Shown: positions 1-9,878 of the stretch, piece after piece | Numbering within the stretch: position 1 is the first letter of the stretch | Layout of the letters: each line of letters starts with the position of its first letter | IMG/VR virus record: IMGVR_UViG_2703718826_000003 | Coordinates: 1 to 9,878 of that record | Reading direction: 5' to 3' (one strand) | Length of the DNA stretch: 9,878 nucleotides | DNA from: a virus | Lineage: Duplodnaviria; Heunggongvirae; Uroviricota; Caudoviricetes | Made by a program: the position numbers and the translations under genes | Notes under the pieces: generated by a model | Databases searched by the model: none | What the model was told of the DNA's origin: nothing | The model's input: the letters and a program-made list of their open reading frames with translations, nothing else

Positions 1-1
1 G

Positions 2-265
2 GAACTGGCCAGACATCTAGAATTTACTGTCAGCACCGGCGTTAAAGTTTACTTCTGCGATCCTCAGAGTCCTTGGCAGCGGGGAACAAATGAGAACACA
101 AATGGGCTAATTCGGCAGTACTTTCCTAAAAAGACATGTCTTGCCCAATATACTCAACATGAACTAGATCTGGTTGCTGCTCAGCTAAACAACAGACCGA
201 GAAAGACACTGAAGTTCAAAACACCGAAAGAGATAATTGAAAGGGGTGTTGCATTGACAGATTGA
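2..265 (+). CDS. IS30-family transposase, C-terminal fragment (5' end outside window)
   Basis: Frame 2 is open from window start to TGA at 263-265; translation ELARHLEFTVSTGVKVYFCDPQSPWQRGTNENTNGLIRQYFPKK...ERGVALTD matches my recollection of the IS30 transposase C-terminus including the catalytic-region NENTNGL motif. Confidence 0.85.
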   Translation, partial: ELARHLEFTVSTGVKVYFCDPQSPWQRGTNENTNGLIRQYFPKKTCLAQYTQHELDLVAAQLNNRPRKTLKFKTPKEIIERGVALTD

Positions 266-272
266 ATCTACA
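247..272. repeat. IS30 right terminal inverted repeat (26 bp)
   Basis: TGTTGCATTGACAGATTGAATCTACA, resembling the IS30 terminal repeat from memory; directly abuts unrelated phage DNA. Confidence 0.75.
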
Positions 273-299
273 GTGTTGTATTGTATAAATAGAGTACAT

Positions 300-340
300 A
301 AAGCCATCAATATTTCTATCGATGGCTTTATCTTTTTATT
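300..340. terminator. Hairpin plus T-tract, putative intrinsic terminator (clearest on + strand, possibly bidirectional)
   Basis: Perfect 9-bp stem AAAGCCATC(300-308)/GATGGCTTT(321-329) with 12-nt loop, followed on the + strand by ATCTTTTTATT; sits between the IS30 end and the stop of the minus-strand tail fibre assembly gene. The U-tract on the minus-strand transcript is weaker. Confidence 0.45.
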
Positions 341-914
341 GCGGGGCGACTGGCCACTCAACATCCGCTGCTACTGCTGTATCAACACGATTCAACAATA
401 CCCGATATGTCTTCCATGCAGTCAGTAACGATGCCTCTTCCTCCGTCGCAATATCCAAATCTACGGCATCCTGAAGTGGCGCAATATGCTCACTGGCCAT
501 CTGCATCAGGCTGTTTTTTGTTTCTTCCGCCTTCCGGATCCGGAACAGTTTTTCTGCTTCTGCATCTTTCACCCAGGCTGTGCCGTTCCACTTCTGAAAC
601 TCCCCTTCCGGGGATAACCAGGTGACATTTTCCGGTAATGGGCCAAGTTCAGAAATAAATAACGCGTCGCCGGAAGCCACGTCATAGACGGTTTTTCCCC
701 GATGGTCTTCAACGAGATTCCACGATGCCTCATCACTGTTGAAAACGGCCACGAAGCCAGCCGGAATATCTGGCGGGGCAATATCGGTACTGTTTGCAGG
801 CAGACCTGTATGAGGTGGAATGTATGCATCACCTTCACCAATAAACTCATTGGTTCCAGCCAGTAGATTATAAATTTTTATGGTCCGTGATTGTTCACTC
901 ATTCTGAATGTCAT
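336..914 (-). CDS. tfa: Tail fibre assembly protein (Tfa / Mu-P1 U-type chaperone)
   Basis: 192-aa ORF; N-terminus [48 protein letters not shown] is the typical enterobacterial tail fibre assembly signature as I recall it. Start ATG overlaps the upstream tail-fibre stop (TAATG, minus strand 916-912), indicating translational coupling. Confidence 0.9.
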
Positions 915-2530
915 TATGCAAGCCTCACAATATAGTTAAATGCGATGTTTTTTACGGTGTTTTCTTCGTTACCCGTAGCGTTAACGGTGATGGTGTGTCC
1001 GTGGGGACCAATAATGACAGAATGGGCATGAGCACCAATGCCGATAGTGTGGTTATGGGCACCGATATATACATTGTGAGCATGCCCTCCTGCGCTCGAC
1101 GTGGTACCAGTACCTAACGCAGCGTTATAACCGGCTGATACACCATTCCCCGCGCCAGTGTGACCAACAGGTATATTGTGTGAATGAGCTCCTGCGCTAT
1201 TTGTGGTTTTTGTGCCGTAATCAAATGAACTGGTCGTTTTAGTACCGTAATCAAACGACGATGTGGTTTTCGTCCCCAAATCCGTACTGGATGCACTGGC
1301 GCTGTGGGTGTGCGATTTAATGCCGTCCTGTTCCTGAGACAATACTGCACGACCACTGGCGGGCTTGCCCTTAATCGTCCAGCTACGCATATCAGGGATC
1401 ACACCTGACGGATAAGCGGCTGCAAGTTTCGGGTATGCAGATTTGTCAAAAGTCTGCCCCTGCATCAGGGCATAACCAGACGGAACGGTATCTGATGGCC
1501 AAGGGATCGGTGCGCCAACCGGATAAAGTTCATGCGGCGAAATATACAGCGAATAAACAGAACCGTCCGTTAATCCTTCCGGCTTATTAGCAGAATATGC
1601 TGGTGAAGTATGAATCGTTACGCTGGCATTACTGGTATAATCCCATTGAATATTTACACCAGTCGCATAATTTCCAATAGCAACGTAAATATCGTAAGTG
1701 TCACCAGAAGTATTGACCCACGCAAAATTTGTAAACCCTGCCGATGTGCGCTGCCATAAAGCTCCAGTAATCCCCTTCGGATTACCGTTACCTGCACGCA
1801 AAACAAGTTCAGATATACCTGCCTGTTGAGGTGACCCCACGTTAAATCCCGCGCCACCAATCAACGTAATTGAAACAACAGAACTTGCCTGCGGCATGGT
1901 TACAGTTGCCAGCTTGAACCATCCTGCACCACCACTAAAAGACATTGTTGTGGAGTTGATTGTGCCTATAGACCGTGGGTTAAGTTCAATATCTTTAGAA
2001 CCATCAAACGAGACGCCATTGATAGCACATGCTGTCTGCAACTTGGTCGCTGTAGCCGCATTACCAGAGGTGTCCTGATTCCCTTTGGCATTGACGCCGG
2101 GAATTGAATCTTTTGACGTATAGACCTGCGCCCATTCAGACCAGTTGGCAGAATCAGTATCCCGCCGCGAACGGATATGTACGGGCGCATGGGCACCGCT
2201 CGTGCCACTCCAGCCAATGAATAACTCACCTTCGCCAGCAGCGGTGGCACCTTTAAGGTGAAGCACATTGCCATAGGGGGAAGGGTAGCCATTGTTGTAT
2301 GCCTCATACAGCTGAATCCCGGATGTTCCCTGTGCATTCGCCTCCAGGGCCGTTACGCGACCGCGAGATACCAGAGTATTGATATTAATGTCAGCCGAAC
2401 CATCGAACCTGACGCCATTAATGTTTCTGGCTGTTTTTAATTTCGTCGCGGTGTCGGCGTTCCCCGCCAGCGCCCCGGTGATCCCACCGTTGAAAGTCTG
2501 GCGTGCACTCCATGTGTTAGCCGTGCTCAA
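914..2530 (-). CDS. Tail fibre protein, variable C-terminal (receptor-binding) cassette, Sv/Sv'-like; no canonical start, frame open upstream to 2608 through the crossover site
   Basis: 538-aa ORF with two tail-fibre repeat units (GNADTATKL...[15 protein letters not shown] and [29 protein letters not shown]), a His-x-His-rich C-terminus, and a downstream coupled chaperone gene. First conventional start is TTG at 2530; in-frame translation continues upstream across the cix-like site with no stop until TAA at 2609-2611, consistent with a cassette fused to a constant 5' part by inversion. Confidence 0.85.
1202..1276 (-). repeat. In-frame 30-bp tandem coding repeat (2.5 copies) in the tail fibre gene
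   Basis: Encodes [25 protein letters not shown]. Units 1247-1276 and 1217-1246 are identical at protein level but differ at roughly 11 of 30 nucleotides, almost all synonymous. Confidence 0.7.
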
Positions 2531-2560
2531 CAGGGGGATCTTTTCACCGCTTGTGCCAAG

Positions 2561-2586
2561 TTCTCTTAAACCAAGGTTTAGGATTG
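2561..2586. other. cix/gix-type crossover site for the adjacent serine invertase
   Basis: TTCTCTTAAACC-AA-GGTTTAGGATTG: 26-bp imperfect dyad (9 of 12 half-site positions symmetric) around a central AA, with the AAACC..GGTTT core shared by hix/gix/cix/pix sites. It overlaps the invertase stop codon (2578-2580) and the tail fibre frame reads through it. Confidence 0.8.
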
Positions 2587-3138
2587 AAATGATGACGCCG
2601 GAAACTTCTTATAAAGCGTGGAAACAGCCACATCATAGATGATTGCAACCTGCTTACGGGGGATGCCCTTCTCGAGCAATCGCCGCATTTGCTGCCATGT
2701 TTCTTCTTGGTATTTAGGCCGACGCCCACCTATACGACCTTCTGCGCGAGCTGCATCAAGTCCAGCGCGTGTACGTTCAACGATAAGCTCACGTTCCATT
2801 TCTGCCAGCGCCCCCATTACGTGAAAGAAAAAGCGCCCCATTGGTGTACTGGTGTCGATGGAGTCAGTGAGACTCCGGAAGTTAATGCCTCTGTCACGCA
2901 GCTCTTCCACCAGCACAACTAAGTGACGCATGCTGCGCCCAAGACGATCTAACTTCCATACGACTAGGGTGTCACCTCTGGAAAGCATACGGAGAACCTT
3001 TTTTAACCCAGGGCGTTCAGCCTTTTTGCCGCTCGCCTTGTCCTCAAAAATTAGCTTACATCCTGCGCTTTCAAGGGCATTTCGTTGTAAAGCAGTGTTT
3101 TGTTCATTTGTTGATACGCGTACATAGCCAATTAGCAT
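2578..3138 (-). CDS. cin: Serine DNA invertase, Cin/Gin/Pin/Hin family (186 aa)
   Basis: N-terminus [22 protein letters not shown] with catalytic Ser in the RVSTNEQ motif, conserved [15 protein letters not shown] and GRIGGRRPK segments, and a C-terminal helix-turn-helix-like [13 protein letters not shown]. Length 186 aa, same as P1 Cin as I recall. Gene ends within the crossover site. Confidence 0.93.
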
Positions 3139-3265
3139 ATTTTCTGCTCACCATAGTTATTCATAGCAAGCTGCGGATTTTAATTAACAGAAACCAGTGT
3201 GTGTGGAAATCACAAAGTGCATACCGTGCCCCAATGATGTTTTATTGAAAAGCGGGGTTACTTTA
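3139..3265. promoter_or_regulatory. Divergent intergenic control region between the invertase gene and the plus-strand operon (promoters not resolved)
   Basis: 127-bp AT-rich spacer between divergent starts. One weak sigma70-like candidate for the invertase on the minus strand: -35 TTAATT (complement of 3182-3187), 16-bp spacer, -10 TATGAA (complement of 3160-3165). No confident plus-strand promoter identified by eye. Confidence 0.25.
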
Positions 3266-3547
3266 ATGTTTGATTTAACCATATTTTTTATAACCATCCT
3301 TGGAGGCGTGCATTCGTTTCTGAATGGGGTTCGTGAAAAACGTTACGAAGCGTCATGCAGGCAATTGATGGCCGAGTGTATTGCTGCCGTACTTGCAGGC
3401 TTTATAGGCATGTATTTCGCGGAATATAAGGGTATGGATGAAAGTCTTCAGAATTGCGTGACTATTATTTGCAGCATCAATAACAGGCTCATTCTTGAAA
3501 AGTTACAAAGGATTATCGATTCGTACCTCAGTAGCAATGCCTCTTAA
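3266..3547 (+). CDS. Small holin-like membrane protein (two predicted transmembrane helices); possibly LydC-like
   Basis: ORF track gives 3197-3547 from a GTG with no ribosome-binding site. ATG at 3266 is preceded by GGGG 8 nt upstream and gives a 93-aa protein with two hydrophobic segments (LTIFFITILGGVHSFL, IAAVLAGFIGMYFAEY). Start and function uncertain. Confidence 0.5.
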   Translation: MFDLTIFFITILGGVHSFLNGVREKRYEASCRQLMAECIAAVLAGFIGMYFAEYKGMDESLQNCVTIICSINNRLILEKLQRIIDSYLSSNAS

Positions 3548-3587
3548 GCAACAAATGACCGGTTGAGAAGTTACTTTGCATACCATT

Positions 3588-3609
3588 ACCTCCTGACAAC
3601 GTAGGAGGG
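3588..3609 (+). promoter_or_regulatory. Hairpin pairing the Shine-Dalgarno sequence of the downstream holin gene with an upstream anti-SD
   Basis: CCTCCT (3589-3594) and AGGAGG (3603-3608) form a 6-bp stem with an 8-nt loop; AGGAGG is the ribosome-binding site 6 nt upstream of the GTG start at 3615. Confidence 0.4.
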
Positions 3610-3614
3610 AACTT

Positions 3615-3944
3615 GTGCTTGACACACAGGAATTAGCTCCAGTTGCTATTGCGCTCCTGCTTTCAGTAATTGGTGGGATAGGCACGTTCCTGATGGATGT
3701 CCGAGACGGTCGCCAGTCTGGCAATTTGTTGGGATTGGTTACGGAGATCTTTGTTGCAGTGACAGCTGGCGCGGTGGCGTACCTATTGGGGCAACACGAG
3801 GGCTGGGAGTTATCAATTACGTACTTAATGGTAACGATAGCCAGCAATAACGGTCATGAGGTGATTTCAGGGATGAAACGAGTGAATATCGATAGCATTC
3901 TGAATGTTCTTACAAGTTTGGTGAAAAAGGGAGGCGGGAAATGA
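3615..3944 (+). CDS. lydA: Holin (LydA-like), 109 aa
   Basis: GTG start with strong AGGAGG ribosome-binding site; hydrophobic segments LAPVAIALLLSVIGGIGTFL and LLGLVTEIFVAVTAGAVAYLL, charged C-terminal tail KKGGGK; size and position match P1 lydA as I recall it. Stop overlaps the next start (ATGA). Confidence 0.7.
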   Translation: MLDTQELAPVAIALLLSVIGGIGTFLMDVRDGRQSGNLLGLVTEIFVAVTAGAVAYLLGQHEGWELSITYLMVTIASNNGHEVISGMKRVNIDSILNVLTSLVKKGGGK

Positions 3945-4384
3945 TTGGCTGGGGTGTATGCGTTCTTGCGTTAGCCTTAGCCGATCGCTATTTGCTAAAA
4001 CGCAAGGACATCACGCATTTAGAACTTGGTGATGTGGAAATTAAACCGGGTTTCATCCGGGTGCCGTTCAAATACCGGTCTAAATTCCCGTTTTTGCGCG
4101 GCGCAACAGTCAGATATTGGATCCGCGATGTTCAGAAGCCGACGACAGTGATTGAAGGCGAACAACGTTGTTTGACGTCGGCTGAACAGGGCGAAAACAG
4201 TGAATGGTTGTACATACCCACTGAATATATGGGTAAAGGAGAGCGACTGTGGCATTTCAACGTCATGGTTACGCATGGCGACTCGTTCATTAACCCGTTG
4301 TATCGGATTTTCCCTGTTACTCAGCAAATCCGCAGAAGTTACGTAATAAATCTCGCACAGGATGTGTCAGATGACGAAAAATAA
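3941..4384 (+). CDS. lydB: LydB-like protein (putative antiholin / lysis regulator), 147 aa, N-terminal membrane anchor
   Basis: ATG overlaps the holin stop (ATGA at 3941-3944) with an AGGGAGG ribosome-binding site inside the 3' end of the holin gene; N-terminal hydrophobic stretch MIGWGVCVLALALA then a soluble domain. Assignment rests on size and order relative to P1. Confidence 0.55.
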   Translation: MIGWGVCVLALALADRYLLKRKDITHLELGDVEIKPGFIRVPFKYRSKFPFLRGATVRYWIRDVQKPTTVIEGEQRCLTSAEQGENSEWLYIPTEYMGKGERLWHFNVMVTHGDSFINPLYRIFPVTQQIRRSYVINLAQDVSDDEK

Positions 4385-4973
4385 GTATGCAACGGTCGAT
4401 TTTGACCAGGTTAATGAAAAGGGGCTGAAATCCCTTATCGCGGCGATCAATAAAACCGGGGTTACGGTAATTGAGGTTGACTCCAGCAACCGCGCAACAA
4501 CGAAAGATGGCGTTAAAGTTAAAACCGCAAAGCTGGTTCTTAACGACGGACAAATCCTTGCCATACAGGTAAACGATACTGGCGATATATCGTCTGTGAA
4601 ACTGAATGGAAAAGCTATTCCTAACGCTCAGTCGCCGGATATCAAGACGCTTGGTACCGTCATGGGACAGGCGGCCCGCAAAAACTCCGCAAAATTCCAG
4701 AAATCACTGATCGCCAAAGCGAAGCGTGTAGCCAATCCGGTAGACAAGAAACCGGCAGTTAAATCCAACTTTCAGCGCCTGCAAGAAGCAAAACAGCGGA
4801 ATGCTCAGGTGGTTGCCGCTTATAAGTCCGCGCAGAATTCGGTGTCTTTCAATCAACAGCAGATCACTGATTTGCGGGCGAAGCTGGATAAGGAGACGGG
4901 CCGACTCAATAACGAAAAGGCACGGAATGGCGAACTCAAACGTCGTCTTAAGCAACTGAAAGCAGGAAATTAA
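4371..4973 (+). CDS. Hdf/DarA-family protein (short paralogue), about 200 aa, C-terminal coiled coil
   Basis: ATG at 4371 has AGGA 8 nt upstream (the ORF-track start at 4362 has none). Contains the KNSAKFQ motif followed by a predicted coiled coil; the same motif and architecture recur in the next protein. Confidence 0.6.
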   Translation: MTKNKYATVDFDQVNEKGLKSLIAAINKTGVTVIEVDSSNRATTKDGVKVKTAKLVLNDGQILAIQVNDTGDISSVKLNGKAIPNAQSPDIKTLGTVMGQAARKNSAKFQKSLIAKAKRVANPVDKKPAVKSNFQRLQEAKQRNAQVVAAYKSAQNSVSFNQQQITDLRAKLDKETGRLNNEKARNGELKRRLKQLKAGN

Positions 4974-4974
4974 C

Positions 4975-6006
4975 ATGGAACAGTTCAATATCAATAAAGG
5001 GGTGACGATCAAGCCTGGGCTTGACGTGCTTCCCCCGCCAGTGACTGATGATGAATATCGCGCATTAATGGCCGGTGAGGACCGCTATCTGATGACGGAA
5101 TCCAACACCCTGGAGGAAATCGAGGCTACGTTCTTCTATGACACGCCGATCCACTGGTGTGCTACGGATTTACTGGAGGCGATTAGTTCTACTCGTTTGC
5201 AGTTACACCGGACCATGCAGGCATTTGTCCGGGCATTGAACCAGAAGCTGAATGGCACCGGAATCTCTGCGGGGAGTGATAAAACGGGGGATGTGGCCCA
5301 GAGCGGCGCGCGCGCGATCGGCGGTGCTGAAATTGGCCGGGCACGGAACGTTAACGGGCTGCCGGTCCTGCCAGCCATTATTCCGCTCAGTGATGGTCAG
5401 ACTATCAGCATTCTGTTTCATAGCCCGACAGCGGAAAACCGGATCACCAATAGCGATACGCTGGTTGCTTTCCAGTTCTTACTGAATAAAAAAGACGTTA
5501 CTCACACCGTTGCTCCGATGAGTGGACGTGATATGACGCTGGCGCAGGTCACCATGAAACTTGCCAACCTTGCAGAGAAAAACTCGGCAAAATTCCAGCG
5601 TGCGCAGAAGAAGAAAAAAGCCCTGGTTGATGAAATAACCCAACTACAGGCTGACAGTGACCAGAAAGAGGATGCCATGAGCGACCTCGCGGATCAGGTG
5701 GCAGCGGTAGAAGGGCAGAAGGTAGATCTGGAGCAGAAAATTAACGCTGTTGCATCGGAAGCGGATTCTCTTTATGAAGAGAATGAGCGTTTGCAGACGG
5801 AGATTGATCAGCTCAATCGCACTGGTGGGCGCGAAACCATTGCTCCTGCGGGGATGACTGGTGGACACTCTCGCGCGATGACGGATCGCCTTGCAAGTAT
5901 CAAAAATCGTATGCATATGAACGGGGAAGTGACGCTCAGTAATGGTGCATCAATGAAGCAATTCATTGAGGACGGTGAAGGGTATATCCAGTTAACTGGG
6001 ATGTGA
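4975..6006 (+). CDS. DarA-like protein (antirestriction / head-morphogenesis family), 343 aa
   Basis: ATG 4975 with AGGA 7 nt upstream, 1 nt after the previous stop. Contains KNSAKFQ followed by a long heptad-like coiled coil (LVDEITQLQADSDQKEDAMSDLADQVAAVEGQKVDLEQKINAV...). Naming by analogy to the P1 darA operon from memory. Confidence 0.6.
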   Translation: MEQFNINKGVTIKPGLDVLPPPVTDDEYRALMAGEDRYLMTESNTLEEIEATFFYDTPIHWCATDLLEAISSTRLQLHRTMQAFVRALNQKLNGTGISAGSDKTGDVAQSGARAIGGAEIGRARNVNGLPVLPAIIPLSDGQTISILFHSPTAENRITNSDTLVAFQFLLNKKDVTHTVAPMSGRDMTLAQVTMKLANLAEKNSAKFQRAQKKKKALVDEITQLQADSDQKEDAMSDLADQVAAVEGQKVDLEQKINAVASEADSLYEENERLQTEIDQLNRTGGRETIAPAGMTGGHSRAMTDRLASIKNRMHMNGEVTLSNGASMKQFIEDGEGYIQLTGM

Positions 6007-7391
6007 AGACGCTGGATAAACAGGTTGATGTAACTCCCGATGAAGATGCTGTTATGCAGAAAATCAGTGGTGGCGTCTCCATCGCCGGGATTAACGACAT
6101 CATTTCCTGTGACGATTTCTACCGTTTCCAGCAGCGCGGCATGATCAAAATCACTGACTCATACGGCGTTCAGACTACAGAGTCAGGCTATAGCATTGAT
6201 TTTGTTGGTACCTATACGGACCCACTGAAGCATGCGGTTTACCCGGATCGCCGTGACGGCGCGCTGAAGTCGTCAATTGCAAAATGGGTGCTTGGTATGA
6301 TGTCGGAAGGGAATAACCGCCAGATCCGTTCGGCAGAAACATTCCTGGTTGAACTGTTTGGCTCCAATTATGGCGATGTAATCGCGTCATACGGAGATAC
6401 GCTATCCCCTGAAGCAATTCAGGAGAAAATAGCGGATGCGATCGCCAGAATGCCGGAAAAAACAAGCCAGGGGGCTACTCGTAACGGGGATTCTGAACTT
6501 GAAGTCACCAATGCCATTTTCGGTACCAATGAGTTCCGGGCGTCAGATTATGAGATCACCACAGCACAGTTTGGCACCATTGGCATTTACAGCAATAAAG
6601 CCGAGATCAAGCAGGCAATGGACGCAGCAAGCGCGCGCATCGCAGCAGAACGGGAAGCCAATCTGAATCATGCAGTCGCCGCACTGACTCAATCGTGGGT
6701 AACAGCAATCAGGGAGGCCGCCACCACAGGGAAAATCACACCTGCAATTGCGGATGTCGTAAACGACGGCTCTAAATTTATGGATGCCTATCAAATGGAT
6801 GCGGTGCAGTTGCCATCAGCCTATGGCCAACTCAGCTATCGCATGACCTACAACCTGGTATCAATGTTTACTGACCTTGCCATCCTTGGGCTGGTGGACC
6901 TTAACGAGGTTACGCCGGAATTACTCAGCATGCGCAAGAATCATGTTGAGATATTGCAGAGAATTAACACGGTTCTTGCCGGGCGCACCGATGAAGAGAA
7001 ACAGGCCGACGCTGATCGGATAAACCTGGCCCTAGGCAACATCACGGAGGAAGAAATTGCCGCCAGAAACGAGAAACAAGAAGAGTTATCATCAATACAG
7101 GGTGATGCCACCAGCATAGCTCAGTCTCTTGGGCTGAATTATCGCGTATCCACCGCCGACCTGAAGATGATGTACGCACCAAAATTCGCCGCTGGCGAGG
7201 TATTTGGGCTTCAGGAAGCCTCCGGCATGAAAGGGGTTCTTTTCCGTGCGAAAGACGCAATCAAGGCGAAATTCGGCGCTCGCTGGTTGCCAGCGAAGGC
7301 GAAGAACAGCGACTTCCCAGGTAACTGGTGGATTATCGAGACAAAACACAACGTGGCGGACGTTCTGGCCGTCATCCAACAATACGCATAA
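6003..7391 (+). CDS. Hypothetical protein of the Dar-like operon, 462 aa (possibly the C-terminal portion or partner of DarA)
   Basis: Long ORF with GTG start overlapping the upstream stop (ATGTGA at 6001-6006); coding-like composition; no motif I can assign. Confidence 0.6.
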   Translation: MKTLDKQVDVTPDEDAVMQKISGGVSIAGINDIISCDDFYRFQQRGMIKITDSYGVQTTESGYSIDFVGTYTDPLKHAVYPDRRDGALKSSIAKWVLGMMSEGNNRQIRSAETFLVELFGSNYGDVIASYGDTLSPEAIQEKIADAIARMPEKTSQGATRNGDSELEVTNAIFGTNEFRASDYEITTAQFGTIGIYSNKAEIKQAMDAASARIAAEREANLNHAVAALTQSWVTAIREAATTGKITPAIADVVNDGSKFMDAYQMDAVQLPSAYGQLSYRMTYNLVSMFTDLAILGLVDLNEVTPELLSMRKNHVEILQRINTVLAGRTDEEKQADADRINLALGNITEEEIAARNEKQEELSSIQGDATSIAQSLGLNYRVSTADLKMMYAPKFAAGEVFGLQEASGMKGVLFRAKDAIKAKFGARWLPAKAKNSDFPGNWWIIETKHNVADVLAVIQQYA

Positions 7392-7396
7392 CAGGA

Positions 7397-7416
7397 GCGC
7401 CCGGTTCGCCGGGCGT
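7397..7416 (+). other. GC-rich hairpin with UUCG tetraloop in the intergenic spacer
   Basis: GCGCCCGG-TTCG-CCGGGCGT, 7-8 bp GC stem closing a UUCG tetraloop, between the stop at 7389-7391 and the ATG at 7425; not followed by a U-tract. Confidence 0.5.
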
Positions 7417-7424
7417 CGCATAAT

Positions 7425-7865
7425 ATGGCCACATTATCTGATACAATAAAACCGAATAAAACATATCTTGAGGCGGTGCTGCGTACGGCGTTGTTAGGAA
7501 AGACAGAAGACGAATACGTTGATTTCTTCCTGTCAGGGCTACGCGGGCGATTACTGAAAAATCCCCGCCTGTACCGCAGCTATGGTCCATACTGGCCGGA
7601 AATTAAAAAATTATTACTGGAGCGCGGTTATGGTAATTTCGGTCGTCTCGTTGACCGTGACGTTCGCAAAATTTACCGTTATGACCGTCCGGCGCTGACG
7701 CTCATAGCCGCGACGCTCTACAGCCAGGAGCGTTTTGATAATGGTCAGATATACTCAGCCTGGCATTTACTGCCAGTGCCTGAAGAGGTTGACGACCAGG
7801 ACTATGAGTTTGAGTCTTACGATTTGGAAGTTGAAGCCTTGGCACAGGCTGGAGAGAAAACTTGA
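7425..7865 (+). CDS. Hypothetical protein, 146 aa, strongly acidic C-terminal tail
   Basis: ATG start after the hairpin; C-terminus PVPEEVDDQDYEFESYDLEVEALAQAGE; stop overlaps the next start (TTGA). Confidence 0.55.
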   Translation: MATLSDTIKPNKTYLEAVLRTALLGKTEDEYVDFFLSGLRGRLLKNPRLYRSYGPYWPEIKKLLLERGYGNFGRLVDRDVRKIYRYDRPALTLIAATLYSQERFDNGQIYSAWHLLPVPEEVDDQDYEFESYDLEVEALAQAGEKT

Positions 7866-8110
7866 AGAAGCGATACTACACAGTAAAGCATGGGACGCTA
7901 CGAGCATTGCAAGAGTTTGCTGATAAGCATAACGTTGAGGTGCGCAGGGAAGGGGGAAGTAAAGCTCTGCGCATGTACCGTCCTGACGGAAAATGGCGGA
8001 CGGTCGTCGATTTCAAAACTAACAGTGTTCCCCAGGGCGTCCGCGACCGGGCATTCGAAGAATGGGAGCAGATCATCATAGATAACGCATTGCTTCTGAA
8101 CGCTGATTAA
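7862..8110 (+). CDS. Hypothetical small basic protein, 82 aa, translationally coupled to the upstream gene
   Basis: TTG start with GGAGAG 7 nt upstream, overlapping the upstream stop (cTTGA); K/R-rich N-terminal half. Confidence 0.45.
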   Translation: MKKRYYTVKHGTLRALQEFADKHNVEVRREGGSKALRMYRPDGKWRTVVDFKTNSVPQGVRDRAFEEWEQIIIDNALLLNAD

Positions 8111-8120
8111 TAATCATTTA

Positions 8121-8141
8121 AAGCCCATATGATATGGGCTT
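8121..8141. repeat. Perfect 10-bp-arm palindrome (AAGCCCATAT g ATATGGGCTT)
   Basis: Lies 11 bp after the 82-aa gene stop and 22 bp before the AT-rich gene; no U-tract on either side, so an operator, RNA-processing or stability hairpin is as likely as a terminator. Confidence 0.45.
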
Positions 8142-8162
8142 AAACAACAGGATCGATATACA

Positions 8163-9203
8163 GTGTTAGTTAAATATATAGGCGAGAGTTATATGGAAAA
8201 ACCTTGGCCGGGCATGCACATTAGAACATCTTGTCTGGAGGATGGTTTCTTTAGAGCAACGCAACCAAAGTATCTTAATGATCCGTCGAGTGAGTCGCGA
8301 CTTCTTCCATTTTTTAATAAATTTTCACCAGCCGATTACGCATGGGCTAGAAATGAATTTAAGAAAATGCAACGAGATCCATCTTATGTCCCATCTATAC
8401 AAGAGTTAGAGTATTATTTAAAACCTTGCGGGAAACGATACGGAGAGGATTTTCCACACTTGTTAATCAATGAAGGTTTTACCTCAATGGATTCATATGA
8501 TGAATCTAAACTCCAAGAAATAGTAACGTACCTTAACGATTATTTAGTAGAAGCCGTAAGCTGTCATCTTGGTGTATTCTCTCTATCAAAAAGTGATTGC
8601 AATCTACACATGTGGACTCATTATGCATCGATAGGAAAGGGGTTTGCTGTAGTTTTCGATGAAACACACGATTTTTTCAAAATATATAGGCCGTGTGATG
8701 TTAGTTATAATCCAGAAGATAGAGCATCTGTAACCTATTATAAAGGCGCTGTGCGATTTAATGGCTATCCTGCGCCATCGAGGAATATAGATATAAAGAA
8801 TAAAGATAATACATTGCATGGGATCTTAAATCGAGATTCAGTTCGCGAGCTTTTTATTAATAGGCTCCTTTATACAAAAGGTGAAGAGTGGCTTCCTGAA
8901 AATGAAAGTAGAATTATTTTTCCTTTAGCTGATTGCGAGAGAAAGATAGGAAGTATTGTCTCTCCATCGATTGATGATTGCCTATTAAATGAGTATCCTG
9001 ATGTTTTTCATGACTATCATGAAATTAACTTAAAGAAAATTCCTTTTTCTGCATTCAAGCAAATTACCTTAGGGTATAACATGACTGAAAAAGATAAAAA
9101 TATAATTTTAGATAAAGTTAGTTCGAATAAAGAATTGTCTCACGTCAACGTATTATATTCAAAACTTGATATATACGGAAAGGTTGTGGTTAAGCCCATG
9201 TAA
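8163..9203 (+). CDS. AT-rich cargo gene, 346-aa protein with DUF2971-like motifs; function unknown
   Basis: GC content visibly lower than flanking phage genes. Motifs LVKYIG...FRATQPKYLNDPSSE and SCHLGVFSLS...NLHMWTHYASIGKGFAVVFDE resemble the DUF2971 family as I recall it (N-terminal LYKY, NDP-E, MW-HYA). Start is GTG 8163 or ATG 8193. Confidence 0.6.
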   Translation: MLVKYIGESYMEKPWPGMHIRTSCLEDGFFRATQPKYLNDPSSESRLLPFFNKFSPADYAWARNEFKKMQRDPSYVPSIQELEYYLKPCGKRYGEDFPHLLINEGFTSMDSYDESKLQEIVTYLNDYLVEAVSCHLGVFSLSKSDCNLHMWTHYASIGKGFAVVFDETHDFFKIYRPCDVSYNPEDRASVTYYKGAVRFNGYPAPSRNIDIKNKDNTLHGILNRDSVRELFINRLLYTKGEEWLPENESRIIFPLADCERKIGSIVSPSIDDCLLNEYPDVFHDYHEINLKKIPFSAFKQITLGYNMTEKDKNIILDKVSSNKELSHVNVLYSKLDIYGKVVVKPM

Positions 9204-9287
9204 TAATACGCTTATGTCTACACTTCATGATAAATACCTTCCTTAACTTAGGAAGGTTAGTTGTAGGTTTACGCAGAAAGTAACAAA

Positions 9288-9320
9288 TAACCTTCGTAGG
9301 TTATAGAATATTATTCTTTC
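9288..9320 (+). terminator. Weak terminator candidate after the AT-rich gene
   Basis: Stem TAACCT / AGGTTA with TCGT loop (9288-9303) followed by the T-rich TAGAATATTATTCTTTCC; a second small hairpin ACCTTCC/GGAAGGT lies at 9236-9257. Confidence 0.3.
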
Positions 9321-9347
9321 CGGTGAGTATTCCTTGAGGAACTCTAG

Positions 9348-9363
9348 GGAAGGTGCGAATAAG
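9348..9363. repeat. IS5 terminal inverted repeat (16 bp)
   Basis: GGAAGGTGCGAATAAG at the junction with the AT-rich flank. Confidence 0.8.
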
Positions 9364-9493
9364 TGGGGAAATTCTTCTCGGCTGACTCAGTCATTTCATT
9401 TCTTCATGTTTGAGCCGATTTTTTCTCCCGTAAATGCCTTGAATCAGCCTATTTAGACCGTTTCTTCGCCATTTAAGGCGTTATCCCCAGTTT

Positions 9494-9878
<385 letters not shown>

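Follow-up and report, generated by a model that had tools for sequence, protein, structure and literature searches.

The 26-bp site at positions 2561 to 2586 was identified from its sequence as cixL of a P1-like phage-plasmid, adjoining the cin invertase gene. The site is probably orphaned: cin has remained intact beside it, while the partner site cixR and the constant 5' part of the tail-fibre gene S (Sc) appear to have been lost. The window, by which we mean the whole stretch of DNA analysed, is the entire 9,878-bp draft contig LONL01000097.1 (assembly GCA_001575835.1), with IS30 and IS5 at its ends, and is the exact reverse complement of the contig record (L007). The features assigned in the window are compiled in Table 1.

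Table 1. Features of the window, with coordinates, strand and basis of assignment
Feature	Position	Strand	Basis or remark
IS30 3' end, in the invertible segment just beyond U'	1-272	+	Plasmid homology from 273; contig ends inside
U', tail-fibre assembly chaperone of the Sv' cassette, 192 aa	336-914	-	Pfam Caudo_TAP
Sv' cassette, promoterless tail-fibre 3' part	914-2608	-	Open frame, Pfam Collar, p15648-1 match
606-bp inverted-repeat arm ending in cix	1979-2584		Matches two inverted places in intact relatives
cixL, Cin recombination site, 26 bp	2561-2586	+	26/26 to published cixL and P1 genome
Central AA dinucleotide, point of staggered cleavage and strand exchange	2573-2574		P1 annotation; PMC3241671 Table 3
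cin, serine DNA invertase, 186 aa, intact ORF	2578-3138	-	185/186 to P1 Cin; Pfam
Homologue of the P1 C-segment inversion enhancer	3049-3120		P1 annotation 7070-7141; 69/72 identical
cin upstream region, with counterparts of P1cin, P2cin and RBS	3139-3265	-	Mapped from P1 annotation
P1cin predicted promoter counterpart	about 3177-3209	-	P1 annotation
P2cin predicted promoter counterpart	about 3234-3260	-	P1 annotation
IS5 left end, running off the contig end	9348-9878		Terminal repeat GGAAGGTGCGAATAAG at 9348-9363

On the plus strand, positions 2561-2586 read TTCTCTTAAACC-AA-GGTTTAGGATTG, 26 bases in a 12-2-12 layout. The half-sites agree at 8 of 12 positions, and the Din-family core AAACC-AA-GGT(T/A)T is present. 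The preliminary description had seen here an imperfect dyad of the hix/gix/cix family, essentially the P1 cix sequence, and alignment bore this out. The site was identical at 26 of 26 positions to the published P1 cixL (PMC3241671 Table 3) and to the cixL region of the P1 genome NC_005856 (6582-6607). Agreement with other sites of the Din family was lower, namely 22/26 for cixR, 20/26 for pixL and 19/26 for both hixL and gixL, and ranged from 15 to 20 of 26 over the hix, gix, pix and mix sites scored. When the window was searched with up to three mismatches allowed, the cixL copy at 2561-2586 was the sole match, with 0 expected by chance.

Symmetry alone was uninformative, because the window contains 34 dyads of 12-2-12 geometry and 8/12 quality compared with a mean of 29 in shuffled sequences. 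On that count the dyad is no rarer than chance and might be a palindrome that arose fortuitously in coding DNA and has no role in recombination. We regard this as extremely improbable in view of the complete identity to cixL where no chance match is expected, the flanking P1 C-segment genes at 97-99% identity, and the inversion breakpoints that fall at cixL in relatives. The chance dyad was dropped as a candidate on account of the identity to the characterised P1 cixL, and we take the site to be real by its identity to known sites and not by its dyad symmetry. As a copy of that characterised site, it is an already known element with nothing new in kind.

P1 coordinates were transferred to the window with a local offset of 4021, by which P1 cin (6599-7159) corresponds to 2578-3138, the annotated Cin-binding region to 2557-2587, and the annotated crossover (6594/6595) to 2573/2574. 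The central two bases are marked as the breakage site in Din-family sites (PMC3241671 Table 3).

We next compared the invertase itself with its characterised homologues. The predicted Cin is identical to P1 Cin at 185 of 186 residues, E28K being the sole change. Pfam domains Resolvase (PF00239, E = 4.8e-51) and, at the C terminus, HTH_7 (PF02796, E = 1.9e-18) were detected, and the catalytic Ser9 was present in the N-terminal MLIGYVRVS(9)T, as read from the translation. In Hin, Q151, R154 and L155 together with the basic residues 47, 48 and 51 are proposed Fis/enhancer contacts, peculiar to Fis/enhancer-dependent invertases (PMC3798978). Compared by position with the description in PMC3798978, allowing for the one-residue N-terminal offset of Hin, the Cin of the window has K46, K47, R50, Q150, R153 and L154, which match the invertase-specific residues (PMC3798978 Fig. 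8 legend). The stop codon of cin, TAA at 2578-2580, was found within the right half-site of cixL, just where the preliminary description had placed it.

A Fis-dependent recombinational enhancer had been expected at about 2980-3100, in the 5' part of the invertase gene. This was partly right: the annotated P1 enhancer maps to 3049-3120, still within the gene, a range that overlaps the expected one and lies slightly further right. This 72-bp segment in the 5' part of cin is, at the level of sequence, a homologue of the P1 Fis-dependent enhancer, agreeing with P1 at 69 of 72 positions and identical to the enhancer of the intact plasmid p15648-1. In a crude scan for Fis sites (G-N13-C with an AT-rich centre), one P1 candidate motif was found to have its first G replaced by A in the window, a substitution that the functional plasmid p15648-1 has as well. 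The base behind E28K, at window 3057, falls inside the enhancer homologue, where it is coding and enhancer sequence at once and makes up one of the three differences from P1; p15648-1 carries the P1 base at the equivalent position.

The region upstream of cin was 100% identical to that of p15648-1 and departed from P1 mainly at its distal end. A generic sigma-70 and terminator scan of 200-3700 returned fewer hits than shuffled sequences and none for cin on the minus strand, and we therefore relied on homology to the annotated P1 promoters. By these comparisons cin, its enhancer homologue and its promoter region appear intact.

The tail-fibre frame was then examined. On the minus strand, this frame has a stop at 2609-2611 and is open from 2608 through cixL to the stop at 914-916, in a frame other than that of cin; the earlier statement that it is open from 2608 across the site was thus correct. 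Upstream of cixL it lacks a start codon of its own, and the cassette proper begins at the crossover (2573/2574). Sv' contains a phage tail Collar domain according to Pfam and shares 99.1% identity with its counterpart in p15648-1, and the peptide that spans the crossover in this frame is the one found in the full-length S of that intact plasmid. The product of U' matched Caudo_TAP with E = 3.5e-42, and its relatives are annotated as tail fiber assembly protein. The Sv'-U' cassette, with a lambda Stf/Tfa-like receptor-binding tip and chaperone, lies beside cin in the unexpressed orientation. The "partial tail protein" at this place is a real cassette without a promoter and not a sequencing artefact. 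The second, inverted copy of the 606-bp arm is 96.4% identical to 1979-2584 in P1 and 98.7% identical in p15648-1.

On the minus strand between 336 and 1979, the distal part of Sv' and the whole of U' differ from the P1 versions, and 352-1523 is 88.5% identical to stf/tfa of the lambda family (HK630, HK629 and lambda imm21). The Sv' tip contains a 10-residue peptide repeated twice in tandem and followed by GTKTTNS, as well as a histidine-rich region of HxH repeats. Between U' and the acetyltransferase gene, a hairpin composed of AAAGCCATC and GATGGCTTT with 12 nt between them was observed at 300-329, with a T-rich run after it. It probably serves these two convergent genes as a terminator, and was missed by the generic terminator scan because of its long loop. 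The IS1 breakpoint of strain NCTC9040 described below (position 320) falls within this hairpin.

To set the window beside functional systems, its intact relatives were compared. P1, p15648-1 (NZ_CP009051.1) and pC21-4 (NZ_CP052881.1) each carry cixL by cin and, 4.2-5.4 kb away, an inverted cixR (TTCTCTTAAACCAAGGTATTGGATAA), which lies within S, the tail-fibre gene. Apart from the p15648-1 block 5848-11312, which is inverted (98.5% identical) and whose ends fall inside both cix sites, p15648-1 and pC21-4 are colinear. The two plasmids thus present both orientations of the segment at the family level, and are evidently natural isolates in opposite switch states that carry the Sv'-U' cassette of the window. 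The switch of the P1-like family works as the literature describes. The architecture proposed in the preliminary description, in which inversion fuses a constant tail-fibre 5' part to alternative cassettes, therefore holds for the intact relatives. A working switch in the window is not supported, since one site is present there and the segment is cut by IS30 at 272/273. In many P1-like plasmids, a serine O-acetyltransferase gene lies between U and U' in the invertible segment (8448-9020 in p15648-1; 7866-8438 in a related plasmid, L014); it is a passenger whose orientation flips with the segment, and P1 does not have it.

Since the early 1980s, the inversion of the C segment of P1 by Cin at its cix sites has been textbook knowledge. 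For an intact element, the steps are those established for P1 in classical work, together with the biochemistry of Gin and Hin (PMC3798978). Cin dimers would bind cixL and its inverted partner cixR, about 4-5.5 kb away within S, and the Fis-bound enhancer in the 5' part of cin would join both sites in a synaptic complex on supercoiled DNA. Cin would then cut both sites through Ser9, the breaks in the central AA being staggered by 2 bp, after which one pair of subunits would rotate by 180 degrees and religation would leave the segment inverted. The promoter and Sc would in this way be fused in frame, within ...YLGLRELG..., to either Sv-U or Sv'-U', and exchange of one for the other would change the host range. 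With cixR and Sc lost, cixL would be an orphan half-site, unable to switch anything.

We searched for the partner site in the window and in related sequences. The window contains a single cix site and no second one, and ten contigs carrying this exact Cin contain one cix core each and no second. The closest complete genome is the chromosome of E. coli NCTC9040, which is 100% identical over window 320-9878. There, IS1 lies directly at window position 320 and is followed by unrelated genes of the P1 par/rep region. No second cix was found within the 27.5 kb examined in this genome, and the 606-bp arm (642-bp query) matched one place in the 4.98-Mb chromosome compared with two in intact plasmids. 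The Sc part is present in p15648-1, where its frame runs on across the crossover into the shared peptide. With its promoter, it is absent from the window, and in NCTC9040 the DNA beyond IS1 encodes the par/rep-region genes. The position of IS1 at 320 points to an adjacent deletion mediated by IS1.

Two inverted sites on one molecule were accordingly found in none of these sequences, that is, the window, the ten contigs and NCTC9040; the contig of the window ends inside IS copies. The preliminary description had held that a working switch should show a second inverted site within about 5 kb. None was present in the window or in NCTC9040, and the switch is probably refuted in situ, with the qualification that the window's contig stops in IS copies. 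The exact IS30/U' junction of the window gave 0 hits in species-representative genomes. In complete E. coli genomes and PLSDB no match spanned it, and the best matches listed (100% identical) begin at 273. NCTC9040 is a relative and a different genome, with its left junction formed by IS1 at 320 as against IS30 at 272 in the window; the single site was seen directly in both, and for the window's own genome we infer the loss of the partner. If IS30 and IS1 are simple insertions, sequence beyond the IS30 and IS5 at the contig ends could still hold cixR or Sc. The cin, Sv' and U' ORFs are uninterrupted and carry no disabling mutation, which is compatible with recent decay and equally with continued use.

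A scaffold, L005 (LDYI01000177.1), seems to lead out of IS30 to a lambdoid int gene and on to chromosomal genes of the rspB/rspA-ynfA-ynfB type. It was discounted as proof of partner loss because its IS30 pieces are flanked by N-runs on either side, and the linkage of the P1 remnant to int and the chromosomal genes may be a scaffolding artefact. The N-runs, at 9955-10007 and 10760-10837, lie inside the IS30 copy.

The boundaries of the element were also determined. At its left end the window contains GATTGAATCTACA, ending at 272, which we take to be the IS30 terminal repeat, and homology to P1-like plasmids begins at 273. A sister contig (L008), 100% identical to window 1-8602 (8602 bp), contains a complete IS30, followed by 197 bp of the serine acetyltransferase gene and then IS1, where the contig ends (region 8603-9874 of L008). 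Its IS30 encodes a 383-aa transposase with HTH_38 and rve domains. Past this IS30, P1-like DNA resumes with a 2-bp overlap (p15648-1 9001/9002), and the IS30 is therefore regarded as a simple insertion. As a side observation on the IS5 at the other end, P1 itself carries IS5 near the corresponding region, inside mod.

Within the element, a 16.9-kb deletion relative to P1 joins P1 positions 28802 and 11867 at window 5993-5996. At the junction, darA is retained for its first ~341 codons and darB for its last 462, in ORFs 4975-6006 and 6003-7391 with a 4-bp overlap. The losses include ddrA, ddrB, hxr, isaB, IS1, isaA, ssb, lyz, lydD/E, pro, the portal gene prt and most of darB. The element cannot be a viable phage; it is a defective P1 remnant, chromosome-borne or otherwise IS-bounded. 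The same darA/darB junction is found, 100% identical, on the plasmids NZ_LT883139.1 and NZ_CP010179.1. To the right, positions 8163-9203 (plus strand) encode a DUF2971 protein of 346 aa, which weakly matches PDC-S31, a family of candidate defence proteins in PADLOC. The gene directly follows ulx (7425-7865) and lxc (7862-8110), where P1 has EcoPI mod/res, and may be a swapped defence module.

These boundaries bear on whether the switch could still function in situ, with IS30 and IS1 as passengers in an enlarged segment and with U, Sv, cixR, Sc and the late promoter lying beyond the contig end. Such an arrangement would agree with the clean, simple insertion of IS30, beyond which P1-like DNA resumes, with the intact state of cin, enhancer homologue, promoter region, Sv' and U', and with contig ends that are assembly breaks in repeats and not biological ends. 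It is nevertheless unlikely. NCTC9040 is the sole complete genome with the element, and in it the partner arm is absent chromosome-wide and IS1 abuts unrelated P1 genes. An invertible tail fibre would moreover serve no phage after a 16.9-kb deletion that removed portal, protease and lysozyme, and in 23 of the 29 collection blocks with the exact Cin the longest contig measures 5-10 kb, which fits an IS-bounded fragment. We therefore favour an orphaned cixL in a defective remnant. In practical terms, the proper annotation of the locus is a defective P1 remnant bounded by IS elements and carrying one cix site, and not a working phase-variation switch. For discovery it carries little weight, the site being a copy of the characterised P1 site, and its practical value lies in annotation.

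An orphaned cixL does not by itself make the neighbouring cin idle, and an intact resident cin could still influence how P1-like phage-plasmids entering the cell behave. Gin, Cin, Pin and Hin are known to cross-complement, and Cin uses quasi-cix sites. It is conceivable, if doubtful, that the intact cin and its orphan cixL remain active with other partners, either in trans on Din-family segments or at quasi- or heterologous sites. Equally doubtful are the particular targets and outcomes that can be named, with the e14 P segment and Mu-like or P1-like segments as candidates, and with low-frequency recombination at cixL leading to chromosomal inversions or deletions. The cin ORF, upstream region and enhancer homologue are intact, and the latter two are those of a functional plasmid. 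Din-family sites have the AAACC-AA-GGT core and the central AA in common (PMC3241671). NCTC9040 has a second cin-like gene, and at least one is present in 3755 of 5426 complete E. coli genomes. On the other hand, the enhancer is cis-acting, so that a target in trans needs an enhancer of its own. Activity of this kind would in any case supplement the orphaned-relic reading rather than replace it.

It is likewise doubtful that the intact cin-enhancer-cixL module, lodged in a dead P1 remnant that is fixed in the chromosome of an E. coli lineage, is still expressed as a resident trans-acting Din invertase. If so, the resident Cin could flip the tail-fibre segments of e14, Mu-like phages or P1-like plasmids that enter the cell or already reside there, and pairing of cixL with heterologous or quasi-sites could drive occasional large chromosomal rearrangements.

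Finally, the locus was compared with known systems. As in P1, cixL is identical at 26 of 26 positions, Cin at 185 of 186 and the enhancer at 69 of 72, the overlap with the stop codon is the same, the 606-bp repeat arm is shared at about 96-97% identity, and lydC, lydA, lydB, hdf and darA are the neighbours. Unlike P1, the window has a lambda Stf/Tfa-like Sv'/U' left of 1979 and a segment interrupted by IS30; cixR and Sc are absent from it and from the closest complete genome, and the 16.9-kb deletion leaves the prophage defective. With p15648-1 the window shares 99.1% identity over 273-5996, a stretch that includes Sv'-U', cixL, cin and the upstream region, and the cassette has the same orientation relative to cin. 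p15648-1 and pC21-4 differ in that they keep both cix sites, the full S and the second cassette, whereas the lineage of the window retains 197 bp of the serine acetyltransferase gene between IS30 and IS1.

Among the more distant systems, Mu Gin/gix, e14 Pin/pix, Salmonella Hin/hix and p15B Min/mix share the 12-2-12 sites with an AAACC-NA-GGT core and a small serine recombinase that bears its HTH at the C terminus. Gin, Pin and Min, but not Hin, also share the swapping of tail-fibre 3' ends. Mu gix has GA at the centre in place of the AA of cix, hin lies within its own segment and flips a promoter, and p15B Min uses six sites. The differences from P1 are mosaic and degenerative, and none is new in kind. 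Although in the sequence at hand it shows a single site where a functional switch has two, the system can be assigned to P1 Cin/cix itself, of which it is a member by descent.
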